64,000 nt of DNA from Acidimicrobiales bacterium (GTDB lineage Bacteria > Actinomycetota > Acidimicrobiia > Acidimicrobiales > Palsa-688). The translations under genes and the position numbers were made by a program. Within the stretch, counting starts at the first letter, position 1. Every line of letters begins with the position of its first letter. This document shows, piece after piece, positions 652-49,048 of the stretch. The stretch lies in contig JBMFUG010000001.1 in NCBI GenBank assembly GCA_049966695.1, positions 23,184 through 87,183 on the forward strand, read 5' to 3'. The notes under the pieces are model-generated. The model ran no database searches. It saw only the letters and a program-made list of their open reading frames with translations, and was not told where the DNA came from.

Positions 652-1511
652 ATAAAATCGCCGCCCTTTTTGGTCGTGCCGGAACGGCGACCAGGTGTAA
701 AGGTGGGCACCTCGGCCAGCTTGTAGCCTGCCATCGCGGCCCCGATCAGCAGCTCCGAGGCTTGGTACTGGGGTTGGTCGAGCACGACGCTTGACGTCAC
801 CCCGGCCCTCATTGCGCGCAACCCGCAAGACGGGTCGGTGACCTTTTGGCCGGTCAGCCAGCTTATGAGCTTGCCAAAGACCACCACGCCCAGGTTGCGG
901 GCAAGATCCGTGCTAGCCGTGGAACCGAGCCGGCGCGATGCCGAGACGAAGTCGGCTTTGCCGTCCACGATCGGTTGCACTACCCGAGGTATATCGGCGG
1001 GGTCCCACTGCCCGTCAGCGTCCGTTGTCGCGATAATGCTGGCACCCCTCTCGCGAGCAAGATGGTAGCCAAGCCGCAGTGCGGCACCTTGGCCTCGGTT
1101 GACGCCCACCTCGCAAACAAGGGCACCGGCTCCCCGCGCAACCTCGGCCGTGTTGTCGGAGGCCCCGTCGACGACCACGATCACTTCGGTCGACATGCCG
1201 CAGGCCGTCCCCGGCACCGCCGACACCACCTGGGCTACATTTGCCTCCTCGTTGTAGGCGGCGATCACGACTGCCAACGGCTGCGATGGGCGGTCCTTGT
1301 AAGCCTCCAAGAAGGCGGCCGCAGACTCCCTGTCGAGGCTGTTTAGAGCTTGGGCACCACGCTGACCGCCCGCCCACAGCACGGTTACCCCGCTCCCAGC
1401 GCCGCTCCCGCTCTTGGCAGCGCCCTCCCGCCTCCGGCGGTTGAGCTTTAGCCCAACCACTCGCGTGCCACCTCGGCAATGCCAGCTTCCAGCGCGACAG
1501 AAGGCGACCAA
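570..1511 (-). CDS. Family-2 glycosyltransferase (polyprenol-phosphate sugar synthase-like)
   Basis: GT-A motifs VIAAYNEEANV, VVVDGASDNT and TDADGQWDP. The Arg/Gly-rich N-terminal ~60 aa suggests the true start lies downstream of 1511. Confidence 0.75.
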   Translation of the reverse strand: MVAFCRAGSWHCRGGTRVVGLKLNRRRREGAAKSGSGAGSGVTVLWAGGQRGAQALNSLDRESAAAFLEAYKDRPSQPLAVVIAAYNEEANVAQVVSAVPGTACGMSTEVIVVVDGASDNTAEVARGAGALVCEVGVNRGQGAALRLGYHLARERGASIIATTDADGQWDPADIPRVVQPIVDGKADFVSASRRLGSTASTDLARNLGVVVFGKLISWLTGQKVTDPSCGLRAMRAGVTSSVVLDQPQYQASELLIGAAMAGYKLAEVPTFTPGRRSGTTKKGGDFIYGLRFGAVVLRTWLRDVRRPTNTQRS

Positions 1512-2422
1512 CCAAAGCTCTTGGCAAGGGAATTGTCCACCACCACCGCCGGCATCTCACCAGCCTTGGCTGGGACGTGCGCCACGTCCAAGTGCCGACC
1601 GGTAGCCTTTTCGACCAGGGCGACAAGCTCAAGCACTGAGATGGAGCAACCGGCACCTATGACCACCGGGCCGGACATGGCTGGGGATCTCAGTGCCAAG
1701 AGCACCGCCGAGACCACGTCAGCGATATTTACGTAGTCGCGGACCTGCCGCCCGTCGCCGTAGATGTCGAACTGTGACTCTCCCCTCGCTGCCCGCATCA
1801 ACCTCGGCACGGCCGTGTCTTTTTCCGCCATACCTGGGCCGTAGACATTGGTCAGGCGCAAAGCGACGCCCCGGACCCCGTAAGCGGCGTTGTAGCACGA
1901 GAGCAACATCTCACCGGCAGCTTTAGTCGCCCCGTAAGGCGTGAGAGGCGCCAGCGGCGCCCGTTCGTGGAGCGTCCCAGTTGCCCCTGAACCGACGACT
2001 GCGTTAGAGGACGCAAGCACAAAGGCGGAGACGCCGACTTTGCGGCAACGTTCCAAGAGGTCCCCGAGAGCTGTCACGTTGTTGTCCAAAGCACCTTGGG
2101 GGTCCTGCAGGGACCGCAGCACGGACGTTTGAGCGGCAAGGTGCACGACGGCCGACGTGCCAGGCGCCACCGCCTCTTCTATTACGGCCCGGTTGGTCAG
2201 GTCCCCCAGCACTAGCTCCACTTGGTGGTCACCGTCTGGGTGGCAGCGGAACGGGGGGGCGGGCCGGCGGTCGACGGAGACCACCTGCGCCCCCGCCTGG
2301 CACAGGGCCGCCACGACGTGGCCCCCTATGAACCCAGACCCACCTGTGACCACCACTCGTTCGCCAACCAGGTCCGAAGCGCCCGGAGAGCCGGGCGCCG
2401 AAGTCACATCAGCTGCAGGCAT
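1448..2422 (-). CDS. NAD-dependent epimerase/dehydratase (SDR family)
   Basis: Rossmann motif VVVTGGSGFIGGHVV and catalytic YGATKAAGE (YxxxK). Confidence 0.8.
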   Translation of the reverse strand: MPAADVTSAPGSPGASDLVGERVVVTGGSGFIGGHVVAALCQAGAQVVSVDRRPAPPFRCHPDGDHQVELVLGDLTNRAVIEEAVAPGTSAVVHLAAQTSVLRSLQDPQGALDNNVTALGDLLERCRKVGVSAFVLASSNAVVGSGATGTLHERAPLAPLTPYGATKAAGEMLLSCYNAAYGVRGVALRLTNVYGPGMAEKDTAVPRLMRAARGESQFDIYGDGRQVRDYVNIADVVSAVLLALRSPAMSGPVVIGAGCSISVLELVALVEKATGRHLDVAHVPAKAGEMPAVVVDNSLAKSFGWSPSVALEAGIAEVAREWLG

Positions 2423-14845: not shown

Positions 14846-14877
14846 AGCGGCTCCTTACGTGTGCAGGTCCAGTGACG

Positions 14878-14915
14878 GGGCGCTAGCCCGATGGAGGGGC
14901 GCCAGCCCGATGGAG
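14878..14915. repeat. Tandem 19-nt direct repeat gggcgc(t/c)agcccgatggag x2
   Basis: Read directly at 14878-14896 and 14897-14915, in the divergent intergenic region between the T4SS operon and the relaxase gene. Confidence 0.8.
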
Positions 14916-14997
14916 CAGGCCGGTGCCTGCGAGCGGCACAGTGGCAACCGACTTGCCCTTTCCATATCTTTACATGTGTTTGATAGAGTTTCAAGTG

Positions 14998-20567: not shown

Positions 20568-20858
20568 TCAATATGATACCGGGCCCAGGGCTTGTCGTGA
20601 AGGGCTCTTGGGCTCCTCGGCCTCTTTTGGCTTTTCAGTATGGTGCAGCTCGTCGAGGACCTCGAGCTCTGCCGCAGAGGTGGCGGCCTCTCGGTTGGCC
20701 GCGCTCAGGGCGACAAAGACTTCCTCGCGGTGCACCTGCACATGCTTGGGAGCAGTGATCCCCAAGCGAACCTGGTCTCCCCTCACTTCTAGCACGGTGA
20801 CAACCACATCGTGGCCGATCACAATGCTTTGATGGGCATGCCGCGTCAACACGAGCAC
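20568..20858 (-). CDS. csrA: Carbon storage regulator CsrA (flagellar type, with C-terminal extension)
   Basis: VLVLTRHAHQSIVIGHDVVVTVLEVRGDQVRLGITAPKHVQVHREEV. GTG start at 20858 is preceded by GGAAGGAG. The tracked ORF starts 34 codons further upstream. Confidence 0.85.
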   Translation of the reverse strand: MLVLTRHAHQSIVIGHDVVVTVLEVRGDQVRLGITAPKHVQVHREEVFVALSAANREAATSAAELEVLDELHHTEKPKEAEEPKSPSRQALGPVSY

Positions 20859-21014
20859 TGCTCGCTCCTTCCGTGGGCGATGCCGGGGAGCATAGTCGGC
20901 TCTGGAGCAGTTGTGGGCTTGCGCGCGCGCACGACAAGCGGCCCTGGACGGGTTGTGCACCGGTGGGCGGGTGTGGGCGCTGGGCCGGTCGTGGGCCGGA
21001 GAAACTTGTGGCTC

Positions 21015-21464
21015 TCAGGAGCGCGGGCGCAAGGGCACCTGAGGGCCGTAGTCCGTGCCAGAGAGCACTGCCTGGACAGCTTGGCCAGTGCGGGCGTTTA
21101 TCACGACGGGGCCAAGCAGGTTAGCGGTCGTGTCCTCGGGACGCGCCCGCAAAGTCAAGATCACCAAAAGGACCAGCTCGTCAGGGCCAGCGGCATCGAC
21201 AGCGCGGTACACGTCAGCGCCGAAGCTGGGCCGGTACCAGGGGAAGAACACGCCCGGCCCGACAGCCACAAAACGCAACCCGACCACCTCTTGGCAGTCG
21301 AGGATCCAAAAGGGGCTAGCCGGCTCTGGGCCCCAGCGCCGCAGGGAGAAGTGCCTCGCTGCCGGGAACCCGGGGATACCGCCGGCAAAGTAAAGGCCCG
21401 AAATGCCTACCGAGCCCGGGGCCGTGCCAGCGCGGGGCAACGAGGAGGTGCCAGCCAGGCTCAT
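21015..21464 (-). CDS. fliW: Flagellar assembly factor FliW
   Basis: Motifs FAGGIPGFPAARHFSL, PFWILDC and LLGPVVINARTGQAVQAVL. ATGA overlap with the flgL stop. Confidence 0.8.
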   Translation of the reverse strand: MSLAGTSSLPRAGTAPGSVGISGLYFAGGIPGFPAARHFSLRRWGPEPASPFWILDCQEVVGLRFVAVGPGVFFPWYRPSFGADVYRAVDAAGPDELVLLVILTLRARPEDTTANLLGPVVINARTGQAVQAVLSGTDYGPQVPLRPRS

Positions 21465-25683: not shown

Positions 25684-26643
25684 ATGGTGCCCTACTCAAG
25701 CGCTGACAGTGGTGATACCACCACTTATCATGTTGCTGGGTCCTGGCGCCATGTGCTCGATCGCGCCGATAGTGGTGCAAAGGCCCAAGCCGCACGAGAG
25801 GACGAGCTGGTACGTTCCCACTTGCCCCTAGTGCATTACATCGTATCTGAGATGGCTAGCCGTATCCCCCGCTATGTATCTCGGGACGACCTGGAATCGG
25901 CTGGCCTGGCGGGGCTCGCACAGGCAGCACGTACGTACGACCCAGACAGAGGTATCTCTTTCCAACGCTACGCTTCGGCCCGTATCAGGGGAGCACTGCT
26001 GGACGAGCTGCGTTCGCGCGACTGGGCCAGCCGCTCAGTCCGGGCCAAGGCGCGCAACGTCGCCGCTGCCACCGAGCAGCTCACCGCCAAGCTTGGCCAC
26101 CAGCCCTCGAAGTCGGAAGTGGCCGCGGCAACAGGCATGAGCCGCAACGACTTAGACGCGTTGGACGACGACGTGCACCGAGCGCTGGTCCTCAACTTCG
26201 AGGCTCTTAACCTCGACGGCAACGCCGAAGAAGTCCTGCTCGTCGGGCCGGGAACGAGCCCAGACGACATAGTGCTGGACAACGAAAGGCGCGCCTATTT
26301 GGTGGCCGCCGTTGCGAACTTGCCTGAGAGGCTAAGGCGGGTGGTGGTCGGGTACTTCTTCGAGGAACTGCCCATGCAAGTGCTAGCCGAGGAACTAGGG
26401 GTCACCGACTCGCGCATCTCCCAGATGCGCGCCGAGGCCCTGGTCCTACTGAAAGACGCCATGAACGCTCAGCTCGACCCCGACCTGTTGCCGAAACAAG
26501 AGCCTTCCTCGCGCCTGACCAAGCGCCGCTGCGCCTACTACGCCGCCGTTGCCGCCCACGACGACTACCGCCGACGTCTCGAGCCAGAAGCAGGCCGCCT
26601 GGCAACCCTGTCGAGCAGGCACGACTTGGCCGCACTGGCGTAG
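25684..26643 (+). CDS. fliA: Flagellar/WhiG-type alternative sigma factor (sigma28 family)
   Basis: Region 2 DDLESAGLAGLAQAARTYDPDRGISFQRYASARIRGALLDELRSRDW. Region 4 LAEELGVTDSRISQMRAEAL. About 55 aa of C-terminal extension. Confidence 0.85.
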   Translation: MVPYSSADSGDTTTYHVAGSWRHVLDRADSGAKAQAAREDELVRSHLPLVHYIVSEMASRIPRYVSRDDLESAGLAGLAQAARTYDPDRGISFQRYASARIRGALLDELRSRDWASRSVRAKARNVAAATEQLTAKLGHQPSKSEVAAATGMSRNDLDALDDDVHRALVLNFEALNLDGNAEEVLLVGPGTSPDDIVLDNERRAYLVAAVANLPERLRRVVVGYFFEELPMQVLAEELGVTDSRISQMRAEALVLLKDAMNAQLDPDLLPKQEPSSRLTKRRCAYYAAVAAHDDYRRRLEPEAGRLATLSSRHDLAALA

Positions 26644-27328
26644 GAGTGCCAACCCGGGCCGAAGGGTGGTGAGCAACAAAGGAGGGTGGCGGGCGGCGAG
26701 AGCGACGGAAGGTCCGGGCGAAGACGCTGCCTTCACGGGTCATCTCAAAAATGGACATGGCTCCAGCCTCCTCGTGGCGACATTCGGACTGCGCCTACAC
26801 CACCTCCCACGGCGGTGCCAGCCTGAACTCGGCCCCGAACATCTCGAACAGCTCGACTTCGTCTATTTGCCCCCCTATCGGTTGCTCTCAGTCGGAGCCG
26901 AAGCTATGGACGCCGGACGGCGCTCGGAAGAAAATTGCGCTCTGGCTTAACCCCAGCCGCATCGATAGCCAATCCACCTGGGTAACAGTGAGCATAAGAG
27001 CGGAAGAAATGTGTGGCTATGCGGCACGTACGAGCCTTGACCCACGCCCCTAATAGAGCCCGTGCTCAGACGGCTGTCGAGGTTCGAGTTCGCGCAGGAA
27101 AAACGCAAGCACCTGGAACCTGTCGACGAGCCCCAGCCGGCGTCTTGAAAAAGTGGGATCAGCCGCCCGTGCCGGCAGGCCCCAAACGGGCGACCGACTA
27201 CGAGAGCTACCTTGTCGTACCGGCACGGCCTTCACAAATGGAGACTTGACTTTCTGACATCGCAATTATGCGGTCCCAAGTGCCGTGCCGTCGTAGTACT
27301 GGGGTTGTAACCACCACGGGCACCGATG

Positions 27329-27356
27329 CTCATGTCCAGCCAACGGACGCCGATCA
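27329..27356 (+). promoter_or_regulatory. Candidate sigma28-type promoter of the glycosyltransferase genes
   Basis: CTCATG-N14-GCCGATCA, then 7 nt, then the in-frame ATG at 27364. Confidence 0.5.
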
Positions 27357-27363
27357 AAAGTAC

Positions 27364-29706
27364 ATGACTGGCGAAGTGCTGACGGCGCCGACGGATGGCC
27401 GCGCTCGAGGGGCCCAGCGGCCACATCAGTCGCAACCGCACACCGGCACCGAGCCCGACGACATCGCATGGGTAGCACCCTTCCTGAACCCCTCAGGGTA
27501 CGGCGAGGAGGCGCGGGGTTTCCTTATGGGCCTGACGAGCAAGGGCTACCGCGTAGCAGCGCGCTCATCTGGAGATGAACCTCGTGATTTTCTAGAAGGT
27601 TTGGCCGACGACCCGGCTCTGGCACAACAGCTGCAGGCGTCTTTGACATGCCAGATAGCTCCCAACCCCACAGTAGTACTACACCTACCGGGCTACGCAT
27701 TAAGCCCAGTAGAAGGTGCCAAGTTCACAATAGGGCGGACCATGTTCGAAACGGACAGCCTTCCCGTCAACTGGGTCGACAACTGCAACAGGCTGGACCA
27801 GGTCTGGGTGCCGTCCTCGTTCAACGCTGAGACTTTTTACAAGGCCGGCGTGCGTGTGCCGGTCCACGTTGTGCCTGGAGGCGTCGACACACGACGCTTT
27901 CGACCGGGGGTAGTTCCCCTCGACGTACCCGAGGCTCGTGGCGTTACCTTCCTTAGCATCTTCGAGTGGAGCCACCGCAAGGCACCCGATGTCATCATGA
28001 GCGCGTGGGCCCGAGCGTTCAGCCCTGACAGCCCAGTGTCGCTTGTGCTGCGGTGCTTCCCGCGCGGGCAGTTCGACAACCAGGCTGGCACCACAGACGC
28101 TCTCGTGAACAACCAGCTCGCCCTTCTCGGGTTCAGCCGTACAGAAGTCGCACCAATTGTAATTATTGACCAGCAACTACCTCCCAGTGCAATACCCCGG
28201 TTGATGGCACGCGCCGATGTATTTGTCGGGGTATCGCGTGGAGAGGGTTGGGGACGTCCTCAAATGGAAGCGATGGCAAGCGGGCTAGCCGTAATAGGAA
28301 CTCGCTGGAGCGGCAACCTCGATTTCATGGACGACTCGAACAGCCTATTAGTCGAAATCGACGGTCTCGCACCGGTTGACGAGAAGATGGAAGTACCCTT
28401 CTACAGAGGCCATCGCTGGGCCGAGCCGTCGGTCGACCACTTGGTTGAGCTGCTCCGTCGAACTGCCAGGGACGCTCAGCTGGTACAGCGGCTCGGCAGA
28501 AAAGCTCGTGCCGACATAGAGGCTCGGTGGCAGTGGGACAGCGCAGCCGATATCGCCGACAAGCGCCTAAGGGCTTTGCGGCCAAGACGGGCGACCCTAG
28601 CCACGTCCGTGCCGATGACCAACCGAAACTGCGCTGTTGGCAGCCTGCACAATGAGCCCGAACCGGCGTCCGTGGGGCCGGCCTCGGGCAACCGCAATGG
28701 CTCAGCACGTCTGGACAGCCTTGCACCCTTCGCAACTCCTCCGATAGGTACGCCATCTCCCGACCAAAGCACTTCAGTGCAAGAGCTAGCACAGCTCGTG
28801 TACCGAGCGCTGTCTGCCATGAACAACGCTCTTCTTGAACAGCAGTCAGCCATAGCTGCCTTGCAAGCAAGCTCCTCCCACCAGCCTGGCAGGTCTCCCC
28901 ACGATCAGCCAAGCCTTGAAGAACAATGGTCGCGGCGCCCGTTTTGTGCCCTACCTGGCGGGCTAAGGCTCATGGCCCCCTCAGGACGCGTAGTTATGGG
29001 TTACCGGCACGATAAAGGCAAGACGTCCCACATGGACCAAATATACGTCACGTTCGAAGACGCCTTCCGAGGTACATCAGAGCGCGTCAGTTACCTTCTC
29101 ACCGAGTACCTCCCTTACCTGCGTGACAGGCACAACGTGCTAGAGCTCGGGTGCGGCCGTGGCGAACTTTTAGCCATGTTGGCCCAGCACGGCATCCCTG
29201 CAAGGGGCGTGGACTCCGACGCTGGCATGCTCGAGCGCGCCCGGCGCCAAGGCCTTTCAGTCGTACAGGCCGACCTCCTCGATTACCTAGTAGAGCAAGC
29301 CGACGCCACTGTAGATGCCATCGTCTCAGTCCAAGTCATCGAGCACATTGACCCGACGGCGTTACCCCGGCTGCTCTCGCATGCTCGCAGGGTACTGCAA
29401 CCCGGTGGCCTTCTCCTAATGGAGACAGTAAACCCGCACAACCTGACATCTGCCAAGCTGTTCTGGCTCGACCCAACTCATCGGCACCCCCTCTTCCCAG
29501 AAGCCATGGTCGTGCTGGCCGCCGCCGCCGGTTTTGATGAGACCGTTGTCCTGTTCCCTGGGTCTACCGGCGACCTCGACGCTGACCTGTCCAGGTGCGA
29601 CAGGTACGCACTCCTTGGCAAGGTTGGCAACGCCTGCCAAGAGCCTGCACCGCCAACCGCCCATGACTCCCAAGGCTTGTCCGATGCGCCCCAGTCGCTC
29701 ACATAA
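27364..29706 (+). CDS. Fusion protein: GT4-type glycosyltransferase, coiled-coil linker, class I SAM methyltransferase
   Basis: GT4 ExxxxxxxE motif GEGWGRPQMEAMASG. Methyltransferase motif VLELGCGRGELLAML...VQVIEHI...LQPGGLLLMETVNPHN. Start set at 27364 by the promoter argument (tracked ORF starts at 27268). Confidence 0.75.
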   Translation: MTGEVLTAPTDGRARGAQRPHQSQPHTGTEPDDIAWVAPFLNPSGYGEEARGFLMGLTSKGYRVAARSSGDEPRDFLEGLADDPALAQQLQASLTCQIAPNPTVVLHLPGYALSPVEGAKFTIGRTMFETDSLPVNWVDNCNRLDQVWVPSSFNAETFYKAGVRVPVHVVPGGVDTRRFRPGVVPLDVPEARGVTFLSIFEWSHRKAPDVIMSAWARAFSPDSPVSLVLRCFPRGQFDNQAGTTDALVNNQLALLGFSRTEVAPIVIIDQQLPPSAIPRLMARADVFVGVSRGEGWGRPQMEAMASGLAVIGTRWSGNLDFMDDSNSLLVEIDGLAPVDEKMEVPFYRGHRWAEPSVDHLVELLRRTARDAQLVQRLGRKARADIEARWQWDSAADIADKRLRALRPRRATLATSVPMTNRNCAVGSLHNEPEPASVGPASGNRNGSARLDSLAPFATPPIGTPSPDQSTSVQELAQLVYRALSAMNNALLEQQSAIAALQASSSHQPGRSPHDQPSLEEQWSRRPFCALPGGLRLMAPSGRVVMGYRHDKGKTSHMDQIYVTFEDAFRGTSERVSYLLTEYLPYLRDRHNVLELGCGRGELLAMLAQHGIPARGVDSDAGMLERARRQGLSVVQADLLDYLVEQADATVDAIVSVQVIEHIDPTALPRLLSHARRVLQPGGLLLMETVNPHNLTSAKLFWLDPTHRHPLFPEAMVVLAAAAGFDETVVLFPGSTGDLDADLSRCDRYALLGKVGNACQEPAPPTAHDSQGLSDAPQSLT

Positions 29707-32700
29707 CCGCGCGCCGCACGCCGCTCCTCACGCTTCCAGCAAGCGTCTGGCTCACAAGCAGGCCGCGGCCCCGCCTAGCTTCAGCGTCGACTGGGAGGGG
29801 GACATTTTTCAGCACCACAGCCTCTCGCTAGTAAACCAGGCGCTGTGCTCTCGCCTCATCCAGCGAGGCATCGACGTTGCGGTACAGGCATTAGATGCAC
29901 CGCCCCTCAATGGCAGTGCTTTTAGTAGCCCCGTACCAGAACGCAACATCAACGTCACTGGTCGCTCCCCCACCATCACGGTCCGCCATAGCTGGCCGCC
30001 CCGTTTCGACCCTCGGCCTCCCAGCTTGTGGGCACATATACAGCCTTGGGAGTTCGGCGGCGTCCCCGACACGTGGGTAAGCTCCCTCCAGCACGCAGAC
30101 GAAGTATGGGCACCGTCAACGTGGGTCCGAGACAACTACATTGCCAGCGGCCTGTCCGACGACAAGGTGCAGCTAGTACCCAACGGCGTCGACACCACGC
30201 TCTTCACGCCGTACGGCCCTCGGTACCCGCTCTCTACCCAGAAAGCGTTCCGGTTCTTGTTCATCGGTGGGCTCATAGCCCGCAAGGGCATCGACTTGCT
30301 TCTCCGGGCTTACATGGACGCCTTTTCACCCAACGACGACGTGTGCTTGGTCATAAAGGGCTTTGGCTCCAACAGTGTGTACGCCAACGGTTTGTACGAC
30401 ATGGTACGTTCGTTGTGCGCCAGCCAAGAAGGCCCGGCCATAGAGCTCATCGAAGCTGACCTGTCGCAAAATGATATGGCAAGCCTTTACCGCTCCTGCG
30501 ACGTCCTTGTACGCCCTTACCGCGGCGAAGGTTTTGCTTTGCCGGTCGTCGAGGCCATGGCCAGCGGCGTACCCGTGGTGGTCACGGCAGACGGTGCGAC
30601 GGCGGACTTCTGTGATGACTCCGATGCATGGCTTTTACCGAGCCGACGGCAAACTTTACGACAGGTTGGTGGCGTCGGCCCCAGCAGATTGGGTTATTGG
30701 ATGGCCGAACCAGACTTAGGCTATCTAACTAACTTATTGAGAGAGCTGCCGAACCTTCAGGCCGAGTCTGCAATAAAAGCCAAGCGGGCCCGTGACCAGG
30801 TTGTGCACAACTACAGCTGGGACAAAGTCGTCGACGTTGTAGAGGCGCGGCTCAGGAACATGGCAGCGAACAGCACCTCGCCGGCTTTTAGAGACCGCCG
30901 TAATCGCTCCACAGGCCCAACCAGTGCTCAGCCTTACAAGGATTATAAAGTGAACAGCCATGCCGGACTGCCTACAGCACCAAAAGTGCTCCTCTCGGCT
31001 TGCTTGATCGTGAAGGATGAAGAAAAAACACTGCCCGACTGCTTAGAATCCCTCCATCGAGTGGTCGACGAGGTCGTCGTCTACGACACCGGCTCCAGCG
31101 ATGGGACAGTCGCCCTGGCAAAGCGCGCGGGTGCGAGGGTGTTCCAGGGTTACTGGGACAACGACTTCAGCCGAGCGCGCAATGCCGCTTTGGAGCAGTG
31201 CAGCGGGGACTGGGTGCTTTGGGTGGACGCCGACGAGCACTTCGTGTGCGACGCTGTGCCAAGGCTCCGAGGGCTCCTCGCTCAATTGGGACGCGCGGAA
31301 GAGCCTGACGCGTTGCTGGTGGACATCTACAACTTTGGCGGGGACGGCTCCATGCTCGGCAACGTCCATCGCGCATTTCGCATCTTCCGCAAGTCTGCCT
31401 GCTGCTGGTACGGCATGCTGCACGAGCAGGTAGACCTGCGGCCCGCTCTCGCAAGCTCACGCTCCGTCAAGGCGGCCGTGCTGGAGGGTGCCCACATAGA
31501 CCACTACGGCTACCTGGACAAGGTCATCCGCGAGCGTGACAAGCTCGCTCGCAACTTGCGCCTAGCGGAGGCTGCCTTGGAGAGCGAGCCACTAGAGGGC
31601 CAAGAGGGGATGCCGCAGCTCAACTTCGCTCGCTCCCTGGCCGCCCTCGGCCGCTGCGACGAAGCACAGCCTCATTTCGAAGCCGCTCTCGCCTTGGCCC
31701 ACGAAGGCGTCCAAAGGCGCACCGTGCTGCTGCATTTAACCCAAAACCTGCTGACATTAGAGCGTTACGTAGACGTCCTCCGGTACACAGAGATGTTTAG
31801 GCAGGCCAGCAAGAAGACCGGCCTCGTCGACTACCTTGAAGGTGTCGCGCGTAGACGTCTGGGCCAGCTCGACGACGCCATCGGCCTCTTCGAAAGGGCA
31901 GGCGAGCTTGTAGACGACAATGGCTTCGCTTACCCCGAGGCGATGTTGCACGCTGAGCTAGCCGCCGCGCTCGTAGACGCGGGCAGGCCGGCAGACGCCG
32001 CCGAGCACCTTGTCAAACTAGTGGGCGAAGGCCACAACGTCTTGGCGATGACCGCCGCCCTGAAAATCTTTGCGTCAACAGGCAAGCCCCCAGAAGAGCT
32101 TGCTGCCGCTATGCCCGAAGACGACCTCGACAAGGTCGGCGCGGCTCTGCTCCTGGTGCCGCCTGTCGTGGCGGCACCAGTGGCCGAGGCTCTGTACGCA
32201 CGGCTCGGGCCGCGTCCAGCCCTGCTCGCTGCCGCCATCCGCTTCGCGCCCGCCCTGCCCGTCCTGCAGGCGCTCGAGTGGTCCGCACGCCTGAGGGCCA
32301 TCGGCATGTCCAGCCGATGCCCTTTGCTCTCTCAGGCACAGACAGCCGTGCTTGACACACGAGACCGAGTGCGCGCCGCTCTTACAGCTCATGCGGCCTT
32401 TGGGGACCCTGTAGCGGCCTCTCTCGCCCTGGATTTAGCACCGGGCGTGCCCCTAGCTCAGCTGGCGGCCGTTCTTGCCGAGGTCACGGTGCTAGACCCA
32501 CCTATGACACCAGACTTTGCGCGAGCCGTTGCCGGCCCCGGCGCTCCCGCGGCAGGGCCAGTTGGGTCGCCGGACGGTCGCCGCGACGCTGTGGCCACAG
32601 CTCTCCGGGAGCTCGGCTACGGGGACCTAGCTGAGCAAATCAAGAACGGCTGGCAAGATGACGACCCGACCGCGCCCTTTGCAGCTCAGGTCGAGGCCGT

Positions 32701-32716
32701 GGCTGCCGATCGCTAG
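29684..32716 (+). CDS. Fusion protein: GT4-like plus GT2 glycosyltransferase domains with a C-terminal TPR-like helical repeat region
   Basis: GT4 motif RGEGFALPVVEAMASG, paralogous to the preceding gene. GT2 motif SACLIVKDEEKTLPDCLESL...VVVYDTGSSDGT...WVDADE. Ala/Leu-rich helical repeats at the C-terminus. Start is uncertain (ATG 29684 with AAGG SD; tracked ORF starts at 29534). Confidence 0.7.
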   Translation: MRPSRSHNRAPHAAPHASSKRLAHKQAAAPPSFSVDWEGDIFQHHSLSLVNQALCSRLIQRGIDVAVQALDAPPLNGSAFSSPVPERNINVTGRSPTITVRHSWPPRFDPRPPSLWAHIQPWEFGGVPDTWVSSLQHADEVWAPSTWVRDNYIASGLSDDKVQLVPNGVDTTLFTPYGPRYPLSTQKAFRFLFIGGLIARKGIDLLLRAYMDAFSPNDDVCLVIKGFGSNSVYANGLYDMVRSLCASQEGPAIELIEADLSQNDMASLYRSCDVLVRPYRGEGFALPVVEAMASGVPVVVTADGATADFCDDSDAWLLPSRRQTLRQVGGVGPSRLGYWMAEPDLGYLTNLLRELPNLQAESAIKAKRARDQVVHNYSWDKVVDVVEARLRNMAANSTSPAFRDRRNRSTGPTSAQPYKDYKVNSHAGLPTAPKVLLSACLIVKDEEKTLPDCLESLHRVVDEVVVYDTGSSDGTVALAKRAGARVFQGYWDNDFSRARNAALEQCSGDWVLWVDADEHFVCDAVPRLRGLLAQLGRAEEPDALLVDIYNFGGDGSMLGNVHRAFRIFRKSACCWYGMLHEQVDLRPALASSRSVKAAVLEGAHIDHYGYLDKVIRERDKLARNLRLAEAALESEPLEGQEGMPQLNFARSLAALGRCDEAQPHFEAALALAHEGVQRRTVLLHLTQNLLTLERYVDVLRYTEMFRQASKKTGLVDYLEGVARRRLGQLDDAIGLFERAGELVDDNGFAYPEAMLHAELAAALVDAGRPADAAEHLVKLVGEGHNVLAMTAALKIFASTGKPPEELAAAMPEDDLDKVGAALLLVPPVVAAPVAEALYARLGPRPALLAAAIRFAPALPVLQALEWSARLRAIGMSSRCPLLSQAQTAVLDTRDRVRAALTAHAAFGDPVAASLALDLAPGVPLAQLAAVLAEVTVLDPPMTPDFARAVAGPGAPAAGPVGSPDGRRDAVATALRELGYGDLAEQIKNGWQDDDPTAPFAAQVEAVAADR
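32685..32712 (+). promoter_or_regulatory. Candidate sigma28-type promoter of fliC
   Basis: CTCAGG-N14-GCCGATCG lies inside the last codons of the upstream gene, 73 nt before the fliC ATG. Confidence 0.5.
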
Positions 32717-32785
32717 AGACGGCCCAGCACTGGGCAACCACAGGGTGCTTACGGAAGAGCCCCCTTTAGACCCCATGGAGGAAAA

Positions 32786-33916
32786 ATGGGTCTTGACATT
32801 GTCACCAACATAATGGCCCAGCAGGCCTCGAACGACCTGTCCACCAACGAAGCCAATATGCAGTCAGCTTTGGAAAAGCTGTCCTCTGGCTACCAGATCA
32901 ACAACGCGGCAGACGACGCATCTGGCCTAGTGATAAGCCAGCACTTGCAGGCTCAGATAGGCGCCTTCCAGCAAGCGCAGTCCAACACGCAGGCCGGCAT
33001 CAACGTTATCCAGACAGCAAGCGGCGCTCTCAACACGGTGAGCACGATCCTGCAGCGCATCAACACCCTTGCAGTGGAAGCTCAAAACGGCACAGCCACT
33101 GACAATACAGCGATCACCGCGGCCCAGGACGAGGTGAACCAGTCTCTCTCGTCAATAGTCGACATCGCCCAGACCACCGTCTACGGCGACAACCAGCTCC
33201 TCGTCCACGGCTCAGCGAGCAGCGTCAACTATACGTTCCAGGTTGGCTACGACTCCTCTAACGCGAGCCAAGTCGCCTTCTCAGTCTCGGCGTTGACCCT
33301 GGCAAACCTTGGCCTGGTCATGAACTCTGTCGACTTCACGGCGGCTGGCGGCATTTCCAGTGTCGTCAGCAACCTCGCTTCTGGTACTTACGATATCAGT
33401 ATCTCCGCTGATGCCTCCGCCGGTGCCTCCGCAATGGCGATCAATATTGCGAATGGCAGTGATGTGCTGGGCACTGCGGTTGTAACCGATGGCGGCACGG
33501 CCGGCGAAGTCGCTACGATCAACCTCGGGACTTTCGGCGTGGTCAACCTCACTCTAAGCGGTCCGCTGACATCGGCAACCGCGCTCACGGCAACGCAGAC
33601 ATATGCGAACATCAACAGTACGACGAGCCTAGCCTTGGGCAGTGCCGACGTCATAGACGTCGTACAAAATGCCATCGCGACGGTATCGTCAATGCAAGGC
33701 GAGTTCGGTGCTTACCAAAACGAACTGCAGCACATCTCCGACAACGAGACTGTGATGGTACAAAACCTGCAGTCGTCCAACGCAAGCATCGAGGACACCA
33801 ACATGGCATCGGAGATGGTCAACTTCACCCAGGACCAAGTCCTCGTCCAAGCAGGGGTCTCTATGCTGGCGCAGGCCAACCAGATACCCCAGTACGTGCT
33901 CAAGTTGCTCGGCTAA
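32786..33916 (+). CDS. fliC: Flagellin
   Basis: N-terminal NIMAQQASNDLSTNEANMQSALEKLSSGYQINNAADDASGL. C-terminal MVNFTQDQVLVQAGVSMLAQANQIPQYVLKLL. Confidence 0.92.
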   Translation: MGLDIVTNIMAQQASNDLSTNEANMQSALEKLSSGYQINNAADDASGLVISQHLQAQIGAFQQAQSNTQAGINVIQTASGALNTVSTILQRINTLAVEAQNGTATDNTAITAAQDEVNQSLSSIVDIAQTTVYGDNQLLVHGSASSVNYTFQVGYDSSNASQVAFSVSALTLANLGLVMNSVDFTAAGGISSVVSNLASGTYDISISADASAGASAMAINIANGSDVLGTAVVTDGGTAGEVATINLGTFGVVNLTLSGPLTSATALTATQTYANINSTTSLALGSADVIDVVQNAIATVSSMQGEFGAYQNELQHISDNETVMVQNLQSSNASIEDTNMASEMVNFTQDQVLVQAGVSMLAQANQIPQYVLKLLG

Positions 33917-34126: not shown

Positions 34127-36703
34127 ATGAGCACCTTGCAAGGCCTTGGCTACCTCAACACAGCACAAACGCTGTCGGCACTCTTGGGCACTTCTGACAC
34201 GAGCCTGGCCTCCCTAGAAGAAGGCTCGCCCATCACGATCTCGGGCGCAGCCTCAGGGGTCGACACAGCTGAGATAGTCGCGGAGCTGATGCAGGTCGCG
34301 GCAATGCCTCAACAGGAGCTGCAGGCCCAGCTCAACCAGGCCTCCACAGTGCTCGCCAGCTACCAAGAACTTTCCAACGACGTCGCCACGCTGCTTTCCG
34401 TGTCGGACACCCTGGAGTCCCCCTCGGGCTGGCAGGCCTGGATCCCCAACTCGACCAGCGCCGACGCTACCGCCACTGTGGGAGCGGGAGCGGTCGGCGG
34501 CTCCATAACCTTCGCAGTAGACGCTCTGGCTCAGGCAGACTCCATGATCTCGTCAGGTAGCGTCTCTTCACAAAGCTCTCAGGTGACAAGCGGCCCGCTG
34601 CTAGTTGCAGTCGGCGGTGGGGGGCTCGGTATCGGCACGCTGGCTTCGACCAACCTCTCGATCGGCAACCACACGATCGCCGTTACGCAAGCGTCGGCCG
34701 GTGCCTCGCTAGCAGCCAGTAGCGCCCCTGCGAGCTCCACAACCATAACGACGGGGAGCAACGACACCTTGGACTACAGCTTGGACGGCACCAGCGGCTC
34801 GCTGACCATAGCTGCCGGCACTTACAGCGCGTCGCAGCTCGCCGCTGCCGTCCAGTCCGCTTCGGGTGGCAGCCTCACAGCCTCGCTCAACTCAGCCGGC
34901 GACATCGTCCTCACCACCACGGCCCAAGGCAGCAGCACCTCGCTCCAGGTGACAGGAGGAGATGCGGCCTCGGCTCTCGGCTTCACGACCACCCCCAGCG
35001 CGACAGCCTACGGTACAAACGGGGTGGTGACTGTAGACGGGGTTTCCAACACCCTCACCAACTTTTCGCCGGGCAACGCCGTTACCTTGAACGGGCCCAG
35101 CGGTGCTACCGTCACCGCGACCTTCACGGGCCCGCTGAGCGTTGGCTCGCTCACCGCAGCGGAAGTGAACACGGGCAACGGCAGCTTGCAAGATGTCGTA
35201 GATGCCATCAACTCGTCAGGCATAGGGGTCTCAGCGTCGGCCGTCACCACCGGGACCGACCAGTACAGGCTGTCGCTACAGTCCACTGCGAGCGGGGCAG
35301 CAAATACGATCAACATCGACCCCAACGCCTTCAGCGGCCTCGGGACGATGACTACCGTCACCGCTGCAGCCAATGCACAGATAACCGTCGGCACCGGCTC
35401 TGGAGCCTTCATCGTCACCAACAGCTCCAACAACATCACCGGTCTTATGCCCGGGGTCACAATACAGCTGCTGGCAGCCAACCCTGGGCAGGAGACTACG
35501 ATCTCGTTGGAGCCCGACGGCCAGACAATGGCTAGCACCGTGCAGAGCCTTGTAACGGCCGCTAACCAGCTCATAACTGACCTCAATACCGCGACTGCTT
35601 ACACTCCTGCGAGCTCCTCGTCGTCAGGTTCTGCAACTGCAGGGCCCCTGCTCGGCGACCCGACTGCCGACGCGCTGCTCAACTCTGTCCTGTCTGCGGT
35701 GGGCAGCCAAGCCGGCGTCAACTCCACCGGCTCGGCGGGTCTCCTTGGCATCACGATGAACCAGAACGGCACGCTCTCGTTTGACCAGGCGACGTTTGCG
35801 GCTGCTTACGATGCCAACCCCACCCAAGTCGCCAATACCTTCATCTCGGGCGGCTCCAGCTCAAACCCGCTCATGTCTTTTTACGAGTCAAGCGACGCCA
35901 CGGTGCCGGGCCAGTACCAGGTGGACGTCACCCAAGCCGCCTCACAGGCCACCGACACAGGAGCCGCGGTTTCAGGCGGCAGTGTCAGCACGGCAGAGAC
36001 GCTGACCGTTACTTCTGCCGGCAGCACCGCGACCTACACCACCACGGCCGGAGAAAGCCTTGCCGACATCGCCGCCGGTCTAAACCAAGCCTTCGCCACG
36101 GCAAACGTGGCTGTCAACGCGAGCGTCGTCAACGGAGCACTGCAGCTCACCAGCATGGCCTACGGGTCGTCGGCATCCTTCACCGTGAGCTCGACAGCCT
36201 CGGGTAGCGGCACCACGGGGCTCGTAAGCACCTCCGGTACACCCGAGACCTTCACCGGTACCGATGTCCAGGGCACCATTGACGGCCAGGCGGCGACAGG
36301 CACAGGCCAGCTCCTCCTCGGGGCTATCAACACCCCCGCTCAGGGGCTGCTCGTCAATGTCAACGCCACACCCGCACAGCTTTCGGCTGCTGGAGGGACG
36401 ATCACAAGCACCATCACCTACCAGCCCGGCATTGCCCAAGCACTGGCGAACGTCGCTTACGCCGCCGGCAACCCAGCGAACGGCACGCTTGTCAACGCGA
36501 TCAATGGCGAGCAGTCCGAGATGAGCAACCTCTCCACGCAGATATCAAATTGGAACCCAATCCTGCAAGAAGAGCAAGCCCAGCTTGAGAACGAGTTCAA
36601 CGCAATGGAGACCGCCATGGCAACGTTGAAGTCCACGCAGAGCTACTTGTCCCAGTACATGGCGCAGTCTGCCAACTCGTCTTCGTCGTCAAGCGGTGGC
36701 TAG
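34127..36703 (+). CDS. fliD: Flagellar filament cap protein FliD (unusually long, Ser/Thr-rich)
   Basis: ISGAASGVDTAEIVAELMQVAAMPQQELQ near the N-terminus. C-terminal NEFNAMETAMATLKSTQSYLSQ. 858 aa. Confidence 0.8.
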   Translation: MSTLQGLGYLNTAQTLSALLGTSDTSLASLEEGSPITISGAASGVDTAEIVAELMQVAAMPQQELQAQLNQASTVLASYQELSNDVATLLSVSDTLESPSGWQAWIPNSTSADATATVGAGAVGGSITFAVDALAQADSMISSGSVSSQSSQVTSGPLLVAVGGGGLGIGTLASTNLSIGNHTIAVTQASAGASLAASSAPASSTTITTGSNDTLDYSLDGTSGSLTIAAGTYSASQLAAAVQSASGGSLTASLNSAGDIVLTTTAQGSSTSLQVTGGDAASALGFTTTPSATAYGTNGVVTVDGVSNTLTNFSPGNAVTLNGPSGATVTATFTGPLSVGSLTAAEVNTGNGSLQDVVDAINSSGIGVSASAVTTGTDQYRLSLQSTASGAANTINIDPNAFSGLGTMTTVTAAANAQITVGTGSGAFIVTNSSNNITGLMPGVTIQLLAANPGQETTISLEPDGQTMASTVQSLVTAANQLITDLNTATAYTPASSSSSGSATAGPLLGDPTADALLNSVLSAVGSQAGVNSTGSAGLLGITMNQNGTLSFDQATFAAAYDANPTQVANTFISGGSSSNPLMSFYESSDATVPGQYQVDVTQAASQATDTGAAVSGGSVSTAETLTVTSAGSTATYTTTAGESLADIAAGLNQAFATANVAVNASVVNGALQLTSMAYGSSASFTVSSTASGSGTTGLVSTSGTPETFTGTDVQGTIDGQAATGTGQLLLGAINTPAQGLLVNVNATPAQLSAAGGTITSTITYQPGIAQALANVAYAAGNPANGTLVNAINGEQSEMSNLSTQISNWNPILQEEQAQLENEFNAMETAMATLKSTQSYLSQYMAQSANSSSSSSGG

Positions 36704-44799: not shown

Positions 44800-45227
44800 A
44801 GCGCTACAGGTTCCAGCTGGAGGCGGTGCTCCGGGCCAGGCGTGTGCAAGAAGGCGTCGCTCGGGCAGCTTTGGTAGCGGCAAATTCGGCTGCCCGGGCA
44901 GCTGAGCTCGCCACCAAGGAAGCGCTGGCCCACTACCAGCAGGTGGCACAAAAACCTGGGGAAGACTTTATGTCCGACCGAGAGCGGGCCACGCTGGCAG
45001 CCAAGTCCTTTTTCCAAGCAAACGAGTCGTACCGACGGGCCAAGGCGGCCGCCGAGGCAGCCGTGGCGCAGTACCTGGAAGCCCGCCGCCACGTGGCGAT
45101 GCTGGACCGCCTAGACGAACGCCAGCGCGCAGAGCACGCTTTGGCTGTCCAGCACGAGGAGGCCGTGCTGGCGGACGAGCTGGCTACCAACCGCAACCGG
45201 AGGAAAAGGGCGGCGGGGCGCTCATGA
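44796..45227 (+). CDS. fliJ: Flagellar export protein FliJ
   Basis: MKRYRFQLEAVLRARRVQE coiled coil. Positioned after fliI with an ATGA overlap. Confidence 0.6.
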   Translation: MKRYRFQLEAVLRARRVQEGVARAALVAANSAARAAELATKEALAHYQQVAQKPGEDFMSDRERATLAAKSFFQANESYRRAKAAAEAAVAQYLEARRHVAMLDRLDERQRAEHALAVQHEEAVLADELATNRNRRKRAAGRS

Positions 45228-46432
45228 CCTACACCGACGGCCTCTCGAACGTCTTAACCCAAATAGGCCAGATCCAAGGCACTTTTGCCGCTCTGCCCCC
45301 GCTGGGCCAGCCTGCTGATTTCGAAAGCGTCCTGGACTTCGTTTCTTCCCTTGCCTACGTCGGAGGGCCAGTTACAAGCGACCCGAACACCGAGCCAGTG
45401 GGCTGGCCGCTCGAAGAGGGCCAGCCGGTCAGCCCACAGCTTGGCACGGCTAGTGCCACGGCCTCGCCAGCCATTTATGAGGCAGCAGAGTCAGCCAGTG
45501 CGGGGCCAAACATTGCGGGAGCCAGTGCTGCGCCAGCTGGGGCCGAGCCCCTAACTGGGAGCGAACTTAGCTTCGGCCAACAAGTTGTGGCCGACGCAGA
45601 AAAGTACATCGGCACCCCCTATCTTTGGGGAGGTACTAACCCGTCCCAGGGTGTCGACTGTTCGGGGCTGGTCCAAGACGTCTTCGCCGACCTTGGGACC
45701 AGCTTGCCCAGGACTTCGCAGGAACAAGCACGTGCAGGCGTCCCCGTGGCGAGCCTGGCCGACGCACAACCAGGCGACCTCGTCTTTTTCCCCGGCACTG
45801 ACGGGACTGCTGCGGCACCCGGCCACGTCGGGATCTACATAGGTAACGGCGAGATGATCGATGCACCCTACGCGGGGGCAAAAGTAAGGGTGGACCCCGT
45901 AGGCGACCCTACAGAGATCCGGCGCATCATCGGCCCAGTCGGCACTGTCGGCACGGTGAGCGCGGTCGGCACAACCGGTACGGCGGGCGCTGCGGGCACG
46001 ACCGGCACGGACGTCACAGCCGGCATGCAAGACACGACCGGCACGGTGGCTGCCTCGCTTTACGCTTCTGACTTCGCCAGCGCATCAGCGAGCACGGGGG
46101 TCCCGCAATCGTTGCTGGCCGCCGTAGCCGAAACCGAGTCAGCGAACCAATCGAGCGCTGTGAGCAACGCCGGAGCACAAGGCCTCATGCAGCTCATGCC
46201 CTCGACTGCCAACAGCCTCGGCATCAACCCTTTCAACCCTGCCCAAGCGATACCCGCTGCGGCGAACTTGCTGTCGTCTTACTACAAACAGTTCGGTTCT
46301 TGGTCGCTGGCGTTGGCCGCCTACAACGCCGGCCCCGCAGCCGTGGAGTCGAGCGGCGGGATCCCCCCCTACCCCGAGACGCAGGCCTACGTGAGAGAAG
46401 TCCTCAGCCGTGCAGGAATGGAGCCAGCATGA
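45224..46432 (+). CDS. Bifunctional peptidoglycan hydrolase: NlpC/P60 endopeptidase plus SLT lytic transglycosylase domains
   Basis: NlpC/P60: YLWGGTNPSQGVDCSGLV...GHVGIYIGNGEMIDAP. SLT: AETESANQSSAVSNAGAQGLMQLMPSTA...AYNAGP. Overlaps the fliJ stop and the fliK start. Confidence 0.8.
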   Translation: MTYTDGLSNVLTQIGQIQGTFAALPPLGQPADFESVLDFVSSLAYVGGPVTSDPNTEPVGWPLEEGQPVSPQLGTASATASPAIYEAAESASAGPNIAGASAAPAGAEPLTGSELSFGQQVVADAEKYIGTPYLWGGTNPSQGVDCSGLVQDVFADLGTSLPRTSQEQARAGVPVASLADAQPGDLVFFPGTDGTAAAPGHVGIYIGNGEMIDAPYAGAKVRVDPVGDPTEIRRIIGPVGTVGTVSAVGTTGTAGAAGTTGTDVTAGMQDTTGTVAASLYASDFASASASTGVPQSLLAAVAETESANQSSAVSNAGAQGLMQLMPSTANSLGINPFNPAQAIPAAANLLSSYYKQFGSWSLALAAYNAGPAAVESSGGIPPYPETQAYVREVLSRAGMEPA

Positions 46433-48442: not shown

Positions 48443-49048
48443 ATGAGCGACATTTCCGCGACTAGCTCAACGAGCACCGGGCCCACGGCCACGCTGCCTC
48501 CCGGCTACAGCGCCCCCACCGACAGCACCAGCACGACCAGCCAGTCGAGCCTGAACGGCGTCAATGCCGACACCTTCTTGCAACTTCTCGTGGCCCAGCT
48601 CCAGTACCAGGACCCAACCAGCCCAGTCGACCCCACAGAGTTCCTGTCGCAAACGGCGTCGTTCGAAGAAGTGGAAGAGCTGACCAGCCTGCAGAGCTCG
48701 CTGTCGAGCCTCGTAAGCGCTCAACAGGCGGGGGCGGCCACGGCGATGCTTGGGTCCCAGGTCACCGGTACAGACGCAAATGGCAAGCAAGTGTCTGGCA
48801 TCGTGACCGGTGTCCAGCTGACATCGAACGGCCCCACCCTCACCGTAGGCAACAGCACCATCGCCTACAGCTCAGTTACCAGCGTAACGACGGCGTCAAG
48901 CGCGTCCGGCACCACCAGCTCGTCGTCCAGCACAACCGGCTCGTCAACCACCACGGGCACCACTGGCTCGTCGTCTGCCACTAACAGCTCGTCCGCCACC
49001 GCTAGCCCGTCAACCTCGTCAACCTCGTCAACCTCGTCGAGCTCTTAG
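48443..49048 (+). CDS. flgD: Flagellar hook capping/assembly protein FlgD with poly-Ser/Thr tail
   Basis: DTFLQLLVAQLQYQDPTSPVDPTEFLSQ. The C-terminal ~55 aa are almost entirely S/T/G. Confidence 0.8.
   Translation: MSDISATSSTSTGPTATLPPGYSAPTDSTSTTSQSSLNGVNADTFLQLLVAQLQYQDPTSPVDPTEFLSQTASFEEVEELTSLQSSLSSLVSAQQAGAATAMLGSQVTGTDANGKQVSGIVTGVQLTSNGPTLTVGNSTIAYSSVTSVTTASSASGTTSSSSSTTGSSTTTGTTGSSSATNSSSATASPSTSSTSSTSSSS

Follow-up and report, generated by a model that had tools for sequence, protein, structure and literature searches.

A GmaR-like glycosyltransferase and GT4-methyltransferase gene pair beside fliC in an Acidimicrobiales bacterium: a probable flagellin modification cassette

Two overlapping multi-domain genes between fliA and fliC

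The DNA analysed here, referred to as the window, is a stretch of 64,000 nucleotides (nt) of contig JBMFUG010000001.1 (positions 23,184 to 87,183, forward strand) from an Acidimicrobiales bacterium, and carries a flagellar gene cluster at ~20.5-62.5 kb. Between a FliA-like sigma factor gene and the flagellin gene fliC, this cluster contains two long open reading frames (ORFs) on the + strand, named gene 1 and gene 2, which encode multi-domain glycosyltransferases (GTs) and are the subject of this study. An initial annotation had described two overlapping genes in this slot, and both ORFs were confirmed, with products of 780 and 1010 amino acids (aa), an overlap of 23 nt and a distance of 69 nt from the end of gene 2 to fliC. 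Read from stop to stop the ORFs are longer (gene 1, 27268..29706, 812 aa; gene 2, 29534..32716, 1060 aa), and the database form of the gene 1 protein (P0121) has 812 aa with its start at 27268. The GT4 domains of this protein family are of two distinct recurrent types, with type A in gene 1 and type B in gene 2, and the features of the locus are as follows (SAM, S-adenosylmethionine; TPR, tetratricopeptide repeat; motif positions are numbered on the shorter forms of 780 and 1010 aa):

25684..26643, + strand: FliA/sigma-28-like sigma factor gene, 319 aa (Pfam Sigma70_r2, r3 and r4), at a position kept in the related loci L001 and L002
27364..29706, + strand: gene 1, 780 aa from ATG; GT4 type A, long helix, class I SAM methyltransferase
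27451..28587, + strand: GT4A domain, ~aa 30-408; EX7E motif at aa 294-302
28765..28878, + strand: predicted helix of 38 residues, aa 468-505
29017..29634, + strand: class I SAM methyltransferase domain, ~aa 552-757; FEDAFRG and GCGRG (596-600) motifs
29684..32716, + strand: gene 2, 1010 aa from ATG; GT4 type B, GmaR-like GT2, TPR/alpha-solenoid
29783..30871, + strand: GT4B domain, ~aa 34-396; EX7E motif at aa 282-290
30986..31588, + strand: GT2 (GT-A) domain, ~aa 435-635; DTGS at 468-471 and DADE at 515-518; homologous to the GT domain of GmaR and to SunS/ThuS
31610..32704, + strand: TPR and all-alpha C-terminal solenoid, ~aa 643-1007; conserved block W..SARLR.IGM...CPL
32786..33916, + strand: flagellin gene fliC, 376 aa (Pfam Flagellin_N and Flagellin_C); presumed acceptor
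34127..36703: FliD gene, 858 aa, downstream of fliC

Pfam searches (812-aa coordinates) matched the gene 1 product to Glyco_trans_1_4/Glycos_transf_1 at ~170-430, covering the C-terminal Rossmann domain of a GT4 enzyme, and to Methyltransf_23/25/11 at 605-757 (E 1e-19). Its AlphaFold2 (AF2) model, built on homolog alignments, has a mean predicted local distance difference test score (pLDDT) of 81.5, disorder being confined to the N-terminus and the inter-domain linkers. The GT4A domain is modelled as a complete GT-B fold (pLDDT mostly >90), for which Foldseek returned B736L, GlgM, PimB' and ManT (E 1e-15 to 1e-18). The 38-residue helix (assigned by DSSP on the AF2 model, pLDDT ~77-85) has disordered linker on either side and is followed by the methyltransferase domain, which matches PDB entry 3dli by sequence (E 1.4e-29) and also in Foldseek; no chain of WbdD occurs among its 43 PDB sequence matches at E <=0.01. 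Pfam, motifs and the confident AF2 model agree on the order first proposed for gene 1, a GT4 domain and then a class I SAM methyltransferase.

In the gene 2 product (1060-aa coordinates) Pfam located Glyco_transf_4 and Glyco_trans_1_4 at 144-370, which make up a complete GT4 signature, Glycos_transf_2 at 488-583 (E 3e-17) and TPR_12/TPR_2 at 696-797. The AF2 model, again built on homolog alignments, has a mean pLDDT of 88.9, with disorder at the N-terminus and in the linkers only. It is all helical over aa 612-1007 and exceeds a pLDDT of 90 in the solenoid, so that Pfam, motifs and model also bear out the succession of GT4, GT2 and C-terminal helical repeats. The N-terminal GT4 domains of the two proteins are paralogous, as had been suspected (28% identity over 289 aa, E 1e-27). 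In Foldseek both resemble the GT-B retaining enzymes GlgM, PimB', MshA, ManT (methylmannose-polysaccharide mannosyltransferase) and PBCV B736L (E 1e-12 to 1e-18), and the modelled two-Rossmann GT-B fold combined with the EX7E motif argues for CAZy GT4-type retaining enzymes. Every domain call of the initial annotation, which had asked for such an assignment of both proteins, was right.

The GT2 domain carries DTGS and DADE motifs that are invariant in an alignment of GT2-TPR homologs. The analogy to GmaR drawn initially is, in this domain, one of homology: the match to the GmaR GT domain (PDB 22ao) has an E-value of 1.7e-33, or 9.7e-44 with a family profile. In the comparison of the GT2-TPR part with GmaR141-637 (7x9r) the similarity extends through the first TPRs (E 3.7e-11), and no sequence match to 7x9r was obtained beyond them. 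In size and layout the C-terminal 585 aa of gene 2 equal GmaR. The NCBIfam model TIGR04195 matches gene 2 with an E-value of 3e-17, which is below the family cutoff. The GT2 domain also matches SunS (7msp) by sequence (E 4e-15) and in Foldseek (E 5e-16, TM-score ~0.7 to target). No signal peptide and no convincing transmembrane segment is present in either protein, and neither has a Pfam match to the Maf (DUF115)/FlmG-type transferases.

The flagellin central domain, FliD and the tail of FlgD had been singled out as rich in Ser and Thr, and the compositions agree: Ser+Thr make up 26.7% of the flagellin central domain, 28.1% of FliD and 45.8% of FlgD (48443..49048), compared with 8-13% in the non-flagellar proteins of the window. 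FlgD, a protein of 201 aa, has a repetitive poly-S/T tail. Judged purely by composition, FliD and FlgD might be further substrates. The whole flagellin contains only two Lys and one Arg. As also stated in the initial annotation, no nucleotide-sugar gene accompanies the pair: none was found among the ORFs of >=200 aa scanned in the flagellar cluster, and the sole sugar-nucleotide-type gene of the window, an NAD epimerase/dehydratase gene at 1448..2422, lies 25 kb away behind unrelated genes. The window ORFs scanned include no genes for the synthesis of NulO (pseudaminic or legionaminic acid), and no polyprenyl-phosphate priming transferase, flippase or Wzm/Wzt gene adjoins genes 1 and 2.

A modular family beside flagellin genes

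A search for homologs next to fliC in other genomes had been proposed as a check. We scanned one genome per GTDB species, anchoring on the GT2-TPR core, and obtained 80 loci, which were then searched with profiles built for this analysis. Nearly all of them come from Acidimicrobiales/Acidimicrobiaceae; also in the set are Aciditerrimonas ferrireducens, Acidiferrimicrobium sp. IK and Spirilliplanes yamanashiensis. A complete flagellin gene lies within 1.5 kb of the GT2-TPR homolog in 42 of the 49 loci that could be evaluated (those with >=2.5 kb on both sides of the GT gene), being divergent in 24 and co-directional downstream in 18. Standalone GT2-TPR homologs of 566-629 aa (51-80% identity) are common in metagenome-assembled genomes of Acidimicrobiales.

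Three look-ups of individual homologs led to flagellar loci as well, and two of these, L001 and L002, share synteny with the window over the genes for TrwC, LPG synthase, sigma-70, csrA, fliW, flgL, flgK, flgN and fliA, then the slot, followed by fliC, fliD and fliS. The three differ in the fliA-fliC slot alone, whose content is:

Window: GT4A-methyltransferase and GT4B-GT2-TPR
L001: FkbM-type methyltransferase (Methyltransf_21) and GT4B-GT2-TPR
L002: unrelated methyltransferase protein and GT2-TPR

The L002 methyltransferase, which lies at the N-terminus and shares no more than 30% identity with that of gene 1 over the SAM motif, was rejected as its ortholog. Apparent matches to the C-terminal solenoid domain, both in small ORFs of their own and in this L002 protein, were likewise dismissed as artefacts of stop-to-stop ORFs and Ala/Pro-rich composition. 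In other flagellar loci (L003/L067 and L085) the combination is GT4A-GT4B-methyltransferase or GT4A-methyltransferase.

The window thus presents the usual module set of the family, with the gene boundary falling between the methyltransferase and GT4B. The counts of the main fusions are given below (MT, methyltransferase; CT, conserved C-terminal solenoid region):

GT4A-GT4B: 55, as standalone proteins of ~800 aa; the commonest tandem
GT4A-GT4B-MT: 18
GT2-TPR-CT-GT4B: 16
GT4A-GT4B-GT2-TPR-CT: 10
GT4B-GT2-TPR-CT (gene 2 type): 9
GT4A-MT (gene 1 type): 4

In L008 and L013 a GT4B-MT-GT4 protein adjoins a standalone GT2-TPR. The full-length architecture of gene 1 is rare, being found only in P0372 and P0190 among the 150 best matches of 1.84 billion cluster representatives, and the GT4A module is abundant (2,237 representatives at E <=1e-30). 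Of the 80 loci, 8 encode a methyltransferase of the gene 1 type, and each of these also has two or more GT4 domains (Fisher p 2.7e-4). By Rosetta-stone logic, these recurrent fusions and the co-occurrence of the modules suggest that all four act in one pathway. The family is a domain-shuffling one that is common in Acidimicrobiia. The initial statement that the pair is not a described system stands in so far as our literature search found no paper on this family, or on flagellin glycosylation in Acidimicrobiia or Actinoplanes; the pair is, however, one permutation of a widespread modular family and not an isolated oddity.

We also considered whether genes 1 and 2 are a single frameshifted gene. 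This was rejected as the default because the GT4B-GT2-TPR gene starts at an equivalent position in P0003-P0006, L001 and L016, because no relative concatenates both in one protein, and because the L001 gene has its own promoter.

Outside this phylum, a locus of the cultured sulfate reducer Desulfacinum infernum DSM 9756 (L084; FQVB01000021.1) carries an island of ~15 kb directly upstream of flagellin and fliD. It encodes GT4A-GT4B, two GmaR-like GT2-TPR proteins, a GT2-GT4 fusion, a TPR protein, a GT4 and a 963-aa Methyltransf_24-GT4-Methyltransf_23-sulfotransferase fusion. There are also giant proteins of 4,000-5,089 aa (L095 2219-14275, L106 1850-14170, P0350, P0364 and P0382) that combine 5-7 GT modules of the GT4A type with GT2 and a methyltransferase; the two that were inspected adjoin no flagellin gene and have VWA, fumarase and response-regulator genes as neighbours.

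Standalone homologs of the gene 1 methyltransferase (260-430 aa, 43-57% identical) point to a further connection. Several of them (43-51% identical) are named 'O-antigen chain-terminating methyltransferase' by JGI, and the two inspected are both flanked by large GT4 proteins whose C-terminal domains match the full-length GT4A/B profile (E 5e-69); one of the two (L167) adjoins Wzm and a Wzt with the cap-binding domain Wzt_C. This arrangement agrees with that of ABC-transporter-dependent O-polysaccharide systems, where multi-module polymerases and coiled-coil methyltransferase terminators are variably spread over polypeptides (PMC11231755). The GT4A/GT4B/methyltransferase set thus appears, from its relatives, to have been recruited from O-polysaccharide-type machinery.

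Some other features of the neighbourhood may be recorded here. Among the larger ORFs scanned, the cluster contains flagellar genes only, plus a fusion of an NlpC/P60 endopeptidase with an SLT lytic transglycosylase (45224-46432, + strand), which may be a FlgJ-like peptidoglycan-opening enzyme. A FliK-like protein of 712 aa (46300-48438) has short tandem repeats at 46912-47307, and its gene contains a 39-nt exact repeat with copies at ~47547 and ~47643, 96 nt apart. Just upstream of the cluster (10839-17619) are genes for a TrwC-type relaxase (898 aa) and a TraG-like P-loop protein; since TrwC occupies the equivalent place in the syntenic locus L001 (1-1022), it belongs to the conserved surroundings of the cluster rather than having been inserted recently.

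Promoters and expression of the gene pair

Alignment of the fliC upstream regions of the window, L001 and L002 yielded the motif CTCA-N16/17-GCCGAT, which is also found in the two related loci. There are six copies in the window against 0.26 expected, a number reached in none of 100 shuffles, and all six are on the + strand inside the flagellar cluster, starting at 27329 (gene 1), 32685 (fliC), 38582 (flgB), 50517, 53223 and 58964. The TCA and TGCCGATCGCTA blocks are nucleotide-invariant in the window, L001 and L002 within the last codons of GT genes whose proteins are only 55-63% identical. Related loci contain 69 flagellin genes, of which 22 are preceded by the strict form of the motif at a distance of 51-128 nt (mode 77-80). 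The -10 element GCCGATC[AG] matches the sigma-28 consensus GCCGATAA, and scans with the canonical sigma-28 consensus TAAA-N15-GCCGATAA and with CCGA[TA]A gave nothing near fliC. The elements relevant to expression are:

27329..27356, + strand: sigma-28-like promoter of gene 1, CTCA-N16-GCCGATCA; -10 element at 27349-27356, ending 7 nt before the ATG at 27364
32685..32712, + strand: sigma-28-like promoter of fliC, CTCA-N16-GCCGATCG, embedded in the last codons of gene 2
32717..32785, + strand: fliC 5' leader, conserved in the window, L001 and L002; GGA motifs, namely ACGGA, and AUGGAGGA over the ribosome-binding site
20568-20960, - strand: csrA, in the cluster
21015-21464, - strand: fliW, in the cluster

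A flagellar promoter in front of gene 1 and a fliC promoter in the 3' end of gene 2 had both been proposed in the initial annotation, and both sites match the enriched motif. The sigma-28-like promoters of genes 1/2 and of fliC are presumably read by the FliA-like sigma factor encoded at 25684..26643. In L001, GCCGATCA is followed after 8 nt by the ATG of the GT gene. This likeness, together with the -10 element seven nt before the ATG of gene 1, argues for leaderless transcripts and for the start at 27364; the N-termini of the homologs also favour this start (780 aa) over the one at 27268. We infer a leaderless gene 1-gene 2 mRNA in the window as well. An AAGG Shine-Dalgarno-like sequence lies 9 nt upstream of the gene 2 ATG and a sigma-70 scan between the genes found neither promoter nor terminator. 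Taking into account this sequence and the gene overlap, co-transcription and coupled translation of the two genes are likely. The GGA motifs of the fliC leader, considered with csrA and fliW in the cluster, make it likely that translation of fliC is controlled by a CsrA-FliW-flagellin partner switch.

Putative function and relation to known systems

We consider it probable that the two genes form a FliA-controlled flagellin O-glycosylation and methylation cassette, in which four catalytic modules are distributed over two co-transcribed polypeptides. The link to flagellin is supported by three independent lines of sequence evidence, i.e. GmaR homology, the conserved neighbourhood and the enriched promoter motif. 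The leaderless mRNA would be transcribed from its sigma-28-like promoter alongside fliC, the latter from a separate promoter of that type. In the cytoplasm, before export by the flagellar type III apparatus, the GT2-TPR-solenoid part of gene 2 would recognise flagellin by its helical repeats, and the GT2 module would attach the first sugar to Ser/Thr residues of the exposed central domain. Homology with GmaR makes N-acetylglucosamine (GlcNAc) from UDP-GlcNAc the most likely first sugar, a hexose (Hex) being possible. The retaining modules GT4B (fused to the initiator) and GT4A (fused to the methyltransferase) would then add alpha-linked sugars from housekeeping nucleotide sugars, which would explain a cluster devoid of sugar-synthesis genes. 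The methyltransferase would O-methylate, and hence cap, the outer sugar, the predicted product being a short methylated oligosaccharide, e.g. Me-Hex-Hex-HexNAc-O-Ser/Thr (HexNAc, N-acetylhexosamine). An order of action GT2, GT4B, GT4A, methyltransferase is our guess from the commonest fusions; like the glycan structure and the donor sugars, it is a prediction.

The best known relative of the presumed initiator is GmaR (Lmo0688) of Listeria monocytogenes, a 637-aa flagellin O-GlcNAc transferase and MogR anti-repressor composed of a GT domain, TPRs, a linker and an all-alpha C-terminal domain (PMC9638930). Both have an N-terminal GT2 module followed by TPRs and further all-alpha repeats, ~600 aa in total, and both are encoded in a flagellar cluster, GmaR being a cytoplasmic enzyme that acts on flagellin Ser/Thr (PMC9638930). 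They differ in that the gene 2 module has a GT4 domain attached at its N-terminal side and is partnered by a second GT4 and a methyltransferase, and therefore the product is probably an oligosaccharide rather than a single GlcNAc. Moreover, the C-terminal part of gene 2 has no detectable sequence similarity to the linker and anti-repressor domains of GmaR. We found no evidence of a MogR-type circuit, MogR itself not having been searched for, and no paper on the structure of the GmaR GT domain.

The closest worked example, by analogy, is the type B flagellin of Clostridioides difficile. Its genes GT1, GT2 and GT3 lie downstream of fliC; the enzyme GT1 adds GlcNAc, and the enzyme GT2, a GT-methyltransferase (Pfam 08241) fusion, is proposed to add and methylate two rhamnoses (PMC5207246), the glycan including Rha-Rha3OMe-GlcNAc-Ser (Rha, rhamnose; PMC5207245). 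As in the window, an initiating HexNAc transferase beside fliC is accompanied by an elongating GT fused to a SAM methyltransferase, so that the GT-methyltransferase fusion has a published precedent on a flagellin glycan (PMC5207246). The C. difficile elongating enzymes, however, are of the GT2 family and use dTDP-rhamnose, with dedicated sugar genes nearby, whereas the window has retaining GT4 modules, no sugar genes and an initiator fused to an elongating module. The flagellin glycosylation islands of Geobacillus, too, often contain methyltransferases and GT2/GT4 enzymes (PMC5109656).

Several observations weigh against a flagellin glycosylation cassette. Among the relatives of the GT2 domain, SunS and ThuS act on other acceptors (Cys residues of peptides). 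These glycocin S-glycosyltransferases combine GT2 with a TPR-like helical substrate-recognition domain and give the best structural match to the GT2-TPR part; they modify small secreted peptides encoded alongside, whereas the present locus has no such peptide gene and its linkage to flagellin is conserved. The promoter motif has CTCA at -35 in place of the canonical TAAA, and it was derived post hoc from this clade. The window organism is probably uncultured, since nearly all its relatives are metagenome-assembled genomes. Finally, flagellin is present in only 17 of the 44 GT4A-anchored metagenome loci of >=12 kb, and the giant multi-GT proteins with the GT4A module sit in non-flagellar contexts. 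GT4A was therefore rejected as a flagellin-specific marker, and alone it is not diagnostic of flagellin modification; the GmaR-like core, judged by its neighbourhoods, is. The initial annotation had made its proposal depend on co-occurrence with flagellin genes, and this co-occurrence is borne out for the GT2-TPR core (42/49), while the GT4A module is often non-flagellar (17/44).

The last point leads to the other explanations. The product may be a polymer, GT4A and GT4B acting as an iterative WbdA-like polymerase on a protein-linked primer and the helix-spaced methyltransferase as a WbdD-like terminator, so that flagellin would bear a methyl-capped polysaccharide instead of a trisaccharide. 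We give this only a small share of the probability, and hold it similarly doubtful that a protein-primed, methyl-capped chain of controlled length is built on flagellin by an O-antigen-derived polymerase-terminator machine. In its favour, GT4A-GT4B is the most frequent tandem (55 standalone proteins, 18 proteins that end in a methyltransferase), the methyltransferase homologs bear chain-terminator names and one is found in the Wzm/Wzt (Wzt_C) locus with GT4 proteins of the same profile, and O-polysaccharide systems are known to distribute their polymerase and terminator modules variably over polypeptides (PMC11231755). WbdA/WbdD, ORF6 of Klebsiella pneumoniae O7 and WbbB of O12 share with the family tandem GT modules, a helical spacer, a terminal methyltransferase and this variable distribution (PMC11231755). 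Here, however, the acceptor is expected to be a protein-linked sugar rather than an undecaprenyl-linked primer, and there is no ABC transporter beside the genes, no membrane-anchoring helix and no sequence match to WbdD, which is missing from the PDB matches of the gene 1 methyltransferase at E <0.01. The helix between GT4A and the methyltransferase fits a spacer, but instead of an extended coiled coil gene 1 has only this one stretch of 38 residues, predicted as a single helix; known rulers are longer. In relatives with 4-7 GT modules, each module seems rather to make one linkage. To our knowledge, the characterised flagellin glycans are short, for example that of C. difficile (PMC5207245), which also counts against a polymer.

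It is improbable that the methyltransferase acts on the flagellin polypeptide or another flagellar protein, with an outcome like the lysine methylation by Salmonella FliB. The closest solved structure, 3dli, has no known substrate, and the three unrelated methyltransferase families in the fliA-fliC slot (those of the window, L001 and L002) suggest that methylation is recurrent while leaving its target undefined. Yet a flagellin with two Lys and one Arg makes FliB-type methylation unlikely as the main role, and we ranked it low; in addition, the methyltransferase always occurs with at least two GT4 domains, usually fused to them, and its homologs are found in polysaccharide loci. Least probable, to a degree that makes it hardly credible, is a role in the synthesis of a cell-envelope polysaccharide or glycolipid, with an incidental place in the flagellar cluster. 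The GT4A family does occur in non-flagellar loci and with Wzm/Wzt, and 'glycosyltransferase involved in cell wall biosynthesis' is the wording of the source annotations. Such a role is unlikely because GT4B is fused to a protein-targeting GmaR-like GT2-TPR, because genes for lipid-carrier priming and export (polyprenyl-phosphate priming transferase, flippase or Wzm/Wzt) are missing beside the pair, and because the flagellin adjacency is kept in 42/49 loci and the sigma-28-like promoter is shared.

A flagellin glycosylation island with an initiating GT beside fliC, elongating GTs and a methyltransferase is known already. What is new, on the sequence comparisons made here, is a GmaR-like initiator outside Firmicutes, its physical fusion to elongating GT4 modules, the apparent recruitment of the GT4A/GT4B/methyltransferase set from O-polysaccharide-type machinery, the extensive permutation of the modules, and a putative clade-specific sigma-28-like promoter, here apparently with a leaderless start. 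If the flagellin glycosylation cassette is correctly identified, GmaR-type modification would reach beyond Firmicutes, into a large class of actinobacteria with mainly uncultured members and at least into Desulfacinum, and the initiating enzyme could be hard-wired to elongating and capping modules. The permutations (GT4A-MT with GT4B-GT2-TPR, GT4A-GT4B-MT with GT2-TPR-GT4, or all in one) would form a ready set for studying the cooperation of GTs on a protein, with a concrete glycan to look for, a methylated Hex-Hex-HexNAc made from housekeeping sugars. If instead the product were a polymer, a pathway so far known on lipid carriers alone would have a protein-primed form, and the fusion permutations would be natural experiments in the wiring of such machines. 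The promoter CTCA-N16-GCCGATC[AG], if true, would aid the annotation of flagellar regulons in the genomes of Acidimicrobiia.

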